Shown in pieces: positions 39,633-39,681 of a DNA stretch of 64,000 nt. The first letter of the stretch is position 1. Each line of letters begins with the position of its first letter. The position numbers and the translations under genes are program-made. The notes beneath the pieces were generated by a model. That model saw nothing but the letters and a program-made list of their open reading frames with translations. It had not been told where the DNA came from and made no database searches. Source of the stretch: a virus; the IMG/VR virus record IMGVR_UViG_3300036766_000644, positions 48,685 through 112,684 of that record; one strand, 5' to 3'.

Positions 39633-39670
39633 GCCGGGTAGACACACTACCCGGTCCGGCTCTTTTTTTG
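39633..39670 (+). terminator. rho-independent terminator (GGGCCGGGTAG…CTACCCGGTCCGGC stem + T7 run)
   Basis: Hairpin plus TTTTTTT read directly after the stop of 38353..39624. Confidence 0.65.
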
Positions 39671-39681
39671 GGTATAAGAGG
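39664..39681 (+). promoter_or_regulatory. promoter-like motif TTTGGGTATAAGAG about 16 nt upstream of gene 39697, shared with 60402-60419
   Basis: Near-identical CTCTT(T)nTTGGGTATAAG(A/G)G occurs twice. Both copies follow terminator-like hairpins and precede gene starts. Confidence 0.4.

Follow-up and report, generated by a model that had tools for sequence, protein, structure and literature searches.

The extended -10 consensus TGnTATAAT defines sigma-70 promoters that are independent of a -35 element. The late promoters of phage T4 (TATAAATA) are read by the phage protein gp55 together with the host core enzyme. In the morons of lambdoid phages and in the PeSL (promoter-early stem-loop) cassettes of T4-type phages, a stem-loop or terminator and a promoter flank strain-specific small genes. 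The promoters of the multisubunit RNA polymerases (RNAPs) of the jumbo phages phiKZ and AR9 have been reviewed (PMC7598289); RNAPs of this type have split beta/beta' subunits and no sigma-70-family factor (PMC7824862). In Salmonella phage Arash, RNAP subunits and a sigma factor are abundant in the virion, in a paper that makes no mention of promoters or of transcription mapping (PMC10585845).

The stretch of DNA analysed here (the window, 64 kb, about 60% GC) is a portion of a large phage genome. As an earlier note on this DNA had implied, it encodes transcription machinery of its own, namely a fused RNAP beta/beta' N-terminal subunit, a beta' C-terminal subunit and a sigma-70-family factor (Table 1), the last with an RpoD/RpoS-like region 2. 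The domain inserted in the fused subunit is inorganic pyrophosphatase-like (InPase), and the fusion as a whole recurs in Arash and in several IMG/VR contigs. Further genes encode PolA, a class II ribonucleotide reductase, a VapE-type primase-helicase, a Prim-Pol, a SNF2 helicase, a reverse transcriptase and a large terminase. In tblastn comparisons, Arash and Vibrio phages D69, D181 and D148 gave the nearest matches to the RNAP fusion (36% identity each), and megablast of the window against phage genomes returned no match. Closer relatives in IMG/VR measure 187-194 kb and have 65-85% RNAP identity, the distant ones 47-55%. With the phiKZ/AR9 system the window lineage shares a phage-encoded multisubunit RNAP, partly virion-borne, and, as proposed below, a short promoter consensus of its own; it differs in its fused subunits and its sigma-70-family factors, and the consensus sequences are unrelated. 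From the comparisons below it seems probable that TGGGTATAAG, a 10-mer found at two sites in the window, is the -10-type core of a lineage-specific promoter class, (T)GG(G)TA(T/C)AAG, in Arash-like phages of about 190 kb that encode a beta/beta' RNAP and a sigma factor.

Two regions elsewhere in the window have repeats of other kinds. At 27427-28260, four copies of a unit of about 200 nt with conserved hairpins (CCGGTACC..CCGG, CGTCTCCGTAGTGGAGAC and GCCTAGC) fill a non-coding stretch of about 1 kb near the terminase gene; no Rfam family and no tRNA was found in this array, which may encode structured RNAs or serve in packaging or replication. At 54440-54900, directly 3' of the VapE primase-helicase gene, an AT-rich non-coding region has an AT-rich centre surrounded by at least eight (C)TGAACC(C) repeats, which occur in either orientation, and is a candidate replication origin with iterons.

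Two copies of the motif in the window

The window form of the motif is written TTGGGTATAAGAGG, and its Arash counterpart is GGTATAAG. The two 13-mers of Table 1 are the sole matches in the window at up to two mismatches. The earlier note had placed them ahead of a block of small genes and ahead of the gene for an HTH-regulator paralog; their sequences, plus-strand orientation and position before both units were confirmed, and their spans were refined to those in the table. The 13-mer ends 16 nt before the start codon of gene 39697 at copy 1 and 15 nt before that of gene 60436 at copy 2 (both ATG), and TATAAG ends 18 and 17 nt before the ATG, respectively. An SD sequence lies 5-7 nt 3' of TATAAG, GAGGAG (39684-39689) at copy 1 and AAGGA at copy 2, within the downstream sequences aggttgaggag and ggaccgaaagg. 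Copy 2 starts 14 nt past the stop codon (60392-60394) of the upstream dGTPase-N-like gene. Copy 1 is flanked by the short inverted arms CTCTT/AAGAG, as read directly from the sequence, and its -35 position falls within the stem of a terminator. No upstream block or -35 element is common to the three exact copies known (the two window sites and one in the relative L022, see below), even though the window sigma possesses region 4.

Table 1. Coordinates of the motif copies, of the genes and signals around them, and of related elements
Feature	Position in window	Strand	Remarks
RNAP beta' C-terminal subunit	3452-5251	-	
Fused RNAP beta/beta' N-terminal subunit	6925-11736	-	1603 aa, InPase domain inserted
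Degenerate motif member TTGGTATCAG	11759-11768	+	RNAP-adjacent divergent region; points to gene 11820-12614
Phage sigma-70-family factor	20776-21609	-	regions 2 and 4; homolog of Arash gp196
Weak candidate GGTACAAG	21634-21641	-	24 nt before the sigma-factor gene
Intrinsic terminator of the upstream operon (VWA ... RT ... 488-aa gene)	39623-39669	+	by folding
Motif copy 1, TTGGGTATAAGAG	39668-39680	+	intergenic; TATAAG at 39673-39678
About 17 densely packed small ORFan genes	39697-44758	+	block of about 5 kb, proposed to be driven by copy 1
Motif copy 2, TTGGGTATAAGGG	60408-60420	+	intergenic; TATAAG at 60413-60418
Gene for 367-aa protein with N-terminal HTH-like segment	60436-61539	+	paralog of the ORF starting at 36057
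Terminator-like hairpin with TGGCTTTTTT T-run	61558-61586	+	closes the cassette of gene 60436
cTATACTt	1573, 11749, 34135, 46286	-	
cTATACTt	15394, 52428, 63512	+	
RNAP-divergent element TTGGTAT(C/T)AG			window, L003-L007, L010
RNAP-divergent element GGGTACAAG			L008, L009, L013, L016
RNAP-divergent element AGGTACAAG			L015
RNAP-divergent element GTTATAAG			L011, L012, L014

The exact 10-mer TGGGTATAAG has a chance expectation of 0.03 per window. When the 80 upstream regions were shuffled 300 times, 18% of the shuffles produced 11 or more consecutive shared nt at matching offsets (within 2 nt; P about 0.18); the match between the two copies is therefore non-significant within the window alone, and its significance comes from related genomes. 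The looser pattern G[GT]TA[CT][ACT]AG has 14 matches in the window; five of these precede a start on their own strand by at most 90 nt, where the expectation is about 0.8. TATAAG itself occurs three times on the two strands together. The third occurrence, at 45717 (+), sits inside a minus-strand gene; since two of three relatives have GGTGTACGG there, with codon-like substitutions, it was rejected as a coincidence of coding sequence. The sequence GGGTACAAG found before PolA (23696) was likewise rejected, as it is in coding sequence and reads GGCTACAAG in relatives.

Proposed transcription units downstream of the two copies

The upstream operon ends in a strong hairpin (39623-39665) with a 19-bp stem and a 5-nt loop (-35.4 kcal/mol, z = -7.7, none of 200 shuffles as good), the T7 run of which passes directly into copy 1. 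The claim that both copies follow hairpins holds here and fails at copy 2, where folding of the 5' sequence is no better than that of shuffles (z +0.85); the value 5' of the L022 copy is z +0.25, and copy 1 is the only one of the three with a stable stem-loop.

The ORFan block after copy 1 is missing at the orthologous position in both close relatives (L035 and L042), in which the homolog of the 488-aa gene passes almost straight to the homolog of the minus-strand gene 44760-45857. The block in its entirety is an indel, so neither relative offers a position orthologous to site 1. Pfam and PHROG gave no matches for the genes that follow the motif copies. At the 3' end of the block (44020-44758) there are three tandem small paralogs with the ending ...(I/L)D(M/L)WLE(A/L)G.P. 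On the other side of the terminator, at 37160-39624, the reverse transcriptase gene is followed by the 488-aa gene, and this pairing is kept in relatives; a search of 35700-39700 found no template/variable repeat pair, so the reverse transcriptase gene is not an obvious diversity-generating retroelement.

Gene 60436 is followed by a terminator-like hairpin and therefore forms, with the proposed promoter, a promoter-gene-terminator unit. Only three homologs of it exist among 5.8 billion proteins, and an identical copy is recorded on a 188,569-bp JGI contig; no close relatives of this gene or of the 488-aa gene were found in IMG/VR. Its orthologs P0002 and P0003, which come from more distant relatives (47% and 33% identity), are tightly coupled to the preceding gene and have no motif upstream, so that site 2 is not conserved among orthologs. 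The gene is absent from L022, the one close relative examined at this point, and the cassette gene of L022 is absent from the window. The paralog at 36057, which matches HTH_31 and HTH_3 weakly, has no motif copy upstream. This paralog is split over two frames (36057-36329 and 36148-36903, within 36057-36903) around a poly-A/K-rich stretch, which could reflect a frameshift, a sequencing error or programmed slippage.

At both window units, then, the downstream genes vary between close relatives, as in moron-like cassettes. The units resemble morons and PeSL cassettes in that strain-specific small genes are flanked by a terminator or stem-loop and a proposed promoter, copy 2 giving a promoter-gene-terminator unit; they differ in that a stem-loop is present at site 1 only, and the three instances give no sign of motif-mediated recombination.

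The same core in phage Arash

In the complete Arash genome (OQ632216), GGTATAAG is the most over-represented 8-mer, with 31 copies observed against 4.3 expected. All but one of them (30/31) are on the minus strand, before minus-strand genes and a tRNA block, at 16-60 nt (median 28 nt) from the gene start; several come right after terminators made of a hairpin and CTTTTTAG, and one copy is TTGGGTATAAG exactly, the sequence of the window pair. We defined the GGTAYAAG promoter-like family from this genome. Both window copies have the GGTA(T/C)AAG core, are intergenic and co-oriented with a gene, are followed by an SD sequence and a start codon 16-60 nt on, and belong to a phage that encodes the fused RNAP and a sigma factor. 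The structural genes on the Arash plus strand have another motif, (C/T)TAAAATa, so that this genome presents two promoter-like classes. At four minus-strand sites (101767, 127778, 139405 and 171079), GGTATAAG is followed by an SD sequence and the ATG of ORFs unannotated in GenBank, and the gene gp215 may have been called on the wrong strand.

The window and Arash have in common the identical 8-mer core, its orientation towards genes, the fused beta/beta' RNAP with sigma factors, and a short distance to the start (16-60 nt in Arash; 17-18 nt, and 33 nt in L022, here). Arash copies often stand directly after an intrinsic terminator, here only that at site 1. The two also differ: Arash has 31 copies in 181 kb, serving nearly all minus-strand units, whereas the window has two in 64 kb, at accessory units; Arash mostly reads TGG-TATAAG, the window TGGG-TATAAG. 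The Arash downstream box GTGTAAAC (consensus tAAagTGTAaa) is absent at both window sites. In the first 100 kb of Vibrio phage D69, which by RNAP identity is as near to the window as Arash, there is no enrichment of GTATAAG and no obvious alternative motif.

The motif in uncultured relatives

A third exact TGGGTATAAG is found in a 190-kb relative (L022:14719), where it is intergenic; 33 nt separate it from a GTG preceded by the SD sequence GGAGG. This GTG opens a 259-aa ORFan, non-homologous to window genes, and no HTH gene adjoins this copy. In 389 kb of clade loci, the three copies are the only matches at up to one mismatch, and all are intergenic and co-oriented with a gene; by genome, the 64-kb window has two, the 190-kb relative one (in about 75 kb) and a 187-kb relative none (in about 66 kb).

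The most widespread form is found beside the RNAP gene. All sampled subclades have a GG(G)TA(Y)NAG element in the intergenic region next to this gene, directed away from it (Table 1); the sole exception is L017, the most distant locus. The TTGGTATCAG block of the window is invariant in six relatives while the flanking spacer and hairpin vary. The geometry of the window sites recurs in L013 and L016, where 7 nt separate the element from AAGGAGG, after which a conserved 15-aa hydrophobic peptide begins. Judged from this conservation, the degenerate TTGGTATCAG at 11759 appears to be core to the clade.

Two further observations concern these regions. Conserved ORFs for hydrophobic peptides of 15-20 aa (MVITSVLKFVIVVIL and variants) lie right after the GGGTACAAG element, divergent from the RNAP gene, on the minus strand of L009 (~9900), L013 (~9930), L015 (~5680) and L016 (~9935). 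Downstream of TTGGTATCAG, a stem-loop (window 11769-11800 and its orthologs in L003-L010) has stems that differ and pairing that is retained, as judged by eye; it may be a 5'-terminal mRNA hairpin.

The weak candidate before the sigma-factor gene is only partly conserved, reading GATACAAG in L003 and GTTTCAAG in L006 and L007; in L035 and L041, GGTACAAG is 11 nt from a divergent TATACT element. Taken across phages, the core persists over genomes of 45-69% GC, all of which have the RNAP and sigma factor, and these phages probably have different hosts.

Read on the complementary strand, the element gives CTTATACCCA, similar to the CTTGTACCCT found upstream of RNAP genes; this reading was rejected because at the RNAP loci the SD sequence and the conserved small ORF follow the element on the other strand, and because the Arash copies clearly run GGTATAAG towards the gene.

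A second promoter-like motif

The commoner promoter-like motif in the window is cTATACTt, which always has a gene downstream and precedes the RNAP gene, the helicase gene and others. Three genes, namely the RNAP gene (11736), gene 46271 and gene 63524, have it just 6-9 nt ahead of their ATG, a distance that implies leaderless mRNAs. The copy upstream of the RNAP gene is invariant in relatives. The counterpart of cTATACTt in Arash is probably the late motif (C/T)TAAAATa. At L049:11759-11774, the palindrome GAGTATAGCTATACTC lies between two divergent leaderless genes.

Discussion

The suggestion that the element is a -10-like promoter element gains support from two comparisons of sequence, the top-ranked 8-mer of Arash and the conserved RNAP-adjacent element in relatives. 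Promoter activity, the position of the start sites, early or middle timing and the holoenzyme that reads the element are inferred. The resemblance could instead be due to chance, with two AT-rich, TATA-like stretches happening to share 11 bases, and with the likeness to Arash arising since all -10-like elements look alike. The shuffles, which yield an equally long shared run in nearly a fifth of cases, leave room for this explanation, as do the orthologs of gene 60436 that have no motif and the lack of enrichment in D69. The evidence from outside the window speaks the other way: a third exact 10-mer is intergenic in a relative with none elsewhere in the 389 kb, the 8-mer core is the single top-ranked one in Arash, and one orthologous site keeps GG(G)TAYNAG unchanged from subclade to subclade, in the same arrangement of motif, 7 nt and SD sequence. 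TATAAG is, moreover, nearly absent from the rest of the window. We regard chance as improbable. A site for protein binding or recombination, for example an operator for the HTH family (60436, 36057) or a short homology by which accessory cassettes are swapped, is in our judgment very improbable. One copy does precede an HTH-regulator gene, so that autoregulation is conceivable, all three exact copies are at the 5' edge of strain-specific genes, and inverted arms surround copy 1; however, the motif is non-palindromic, neither the paralog at 36057 nor the L022 site pairs it with an HTH gene, and most minus-strand units of Arash, the tRNA block included, have a copy upstream at a fixed short distance, 30 co-oriented copies in all. 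A role in cassette exchange could be secondary to promoter function.

If the element is a promoter, its reader might be the host RNAP together with the housekeeping sigma of the host; it would then be an extended -10-like promoter of the -35-less kind, and other classes would be left to the phage RNAP and sigma. We think this rather unlikely. The host holoenzyme reads the early genes of many phages, and the small ORFans and the regulator found downstream here are typical of early genes. The motif shares with the extended -10 class a TA-rich hexamer, a G-containing upstream extension, the lack of a recognisable -35 element and a predicted start about 7 nt downstream. The base that most often precedes GGTATAAG in Arash is T (50-70% of copies), which gives TGGTATAAG and, as in the consensus tGGTATAAG, a TG spaced as in TGnTATAAT. 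The RpoD/RpoS-like region 2 of the window sigma would, in addition, suit TAnnnT (the TATACT class) at least as well. The final base of the hexamer speaks against host reading. Of the two -10 positions that matter most to sigma-70, one is the T at -7, yet position 6 is G, not T, at both window sites and in the L022 copy, contrary to a canonical sigma-70 -10 element, and among the 41 occurrences of GGTATAAN in Arash the last base is G in 31 and T in 2. The class has the pattern TAnnAG, where bacterial housekeeping promoters have TAnnnT. The upstream extension also deviates in the window clade: the window, L022 and the relatives with GGGTACAAG read TGGG or AGGG, so that TG is two bases, not one, before the hexamer (an offset of one base from the extended -10) or is absent. 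A consensus scan for sigma-70-type promoters found none at copy 1 or copy 2, and the core is kept over phages that differ widely in GC content. Finally, the packing of RNAP and sigma in the Arash virion suggests early transcription that is independent of the host (PMC10585845).

We therefore favour the phage sigma with the phage RNAP over the host housekeeping sigma, because the final G is invariant where sigma-70 needs T, because the core persists across phages of such different base composition that share RNAP and sigma, and because RNAP and sigma are packed in the Arash virion; we infer that recognition is by the phage-encoded sigma factor with the phage RNAP. In its full form the model is tentative, a possibility that we put forward with reserve: a virion-delivered phage RNAP-sigma holoenzyme (fused beta/beta' with InPase insert), its sigma switched to G at -7, would read GGTAYAAG and provide host-independent early or middle transcription throughout a largely uncultured clade of phages of about 190 kb with many hosts, with copies travelling with accessory cassettes.

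On the reading that we hold to be probable, the phage sigma on the phage RNAP (possibly on the host RNAP) would recognise the element without a -35 box and open the DNA. Initiation would be about 7 nt 3' of the motif, which by standard -10 geometry predicts start sites at about 39684-39686 and about A60425; the mRNA would begin at the SD sequence, with a leader of 11-13 nt. The first unit would be the ORFan block, re-initiated directly past the strong terminator of the preceding operon, and the second a self-contained promoter-gene-terminator cassette for the HTH regulator. As the ORFan block is absent in both close relatives and the HTH cassette is absent in L022, the exact motif would act as a private promoter of accessory, moron-like cassettes.

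The proposed class resembles T4 late and other phage-sigma, -10-only promoters in being short, highly conserved and confined to the -10 region, with several classes per phage, and presumably in being read through a phage protein of the sigma family. It differs from T4 late promoters in sequence, and the phage here also supplies the catalytic subunits. The T4 late box is closer to (C/T)TAAAATa of Arash than to the window motif.

Literature searches found no earlier description of the motif consensus. If the promoter assignment is right, large phages with a fused beta/beta' RNAP and sigma-70-family factors, a lineage that is barely characterised, would gain their first promoter consensus. It would define transcription units and likely temporal classes, GGTAYAAG versus cTATACTt here and GGTATAAG versus (C/T)TAAAATa in Arash, and these classes are directly testable in Arash, a cultured phage. 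A -10 element that ends in G rather than T would be a convenient natural variant with which to study recognition of the -7 base by sigma region 2. The 5-kb ORFan block and the HTH cassette would, in turn, be independently transcribed accessory modules.
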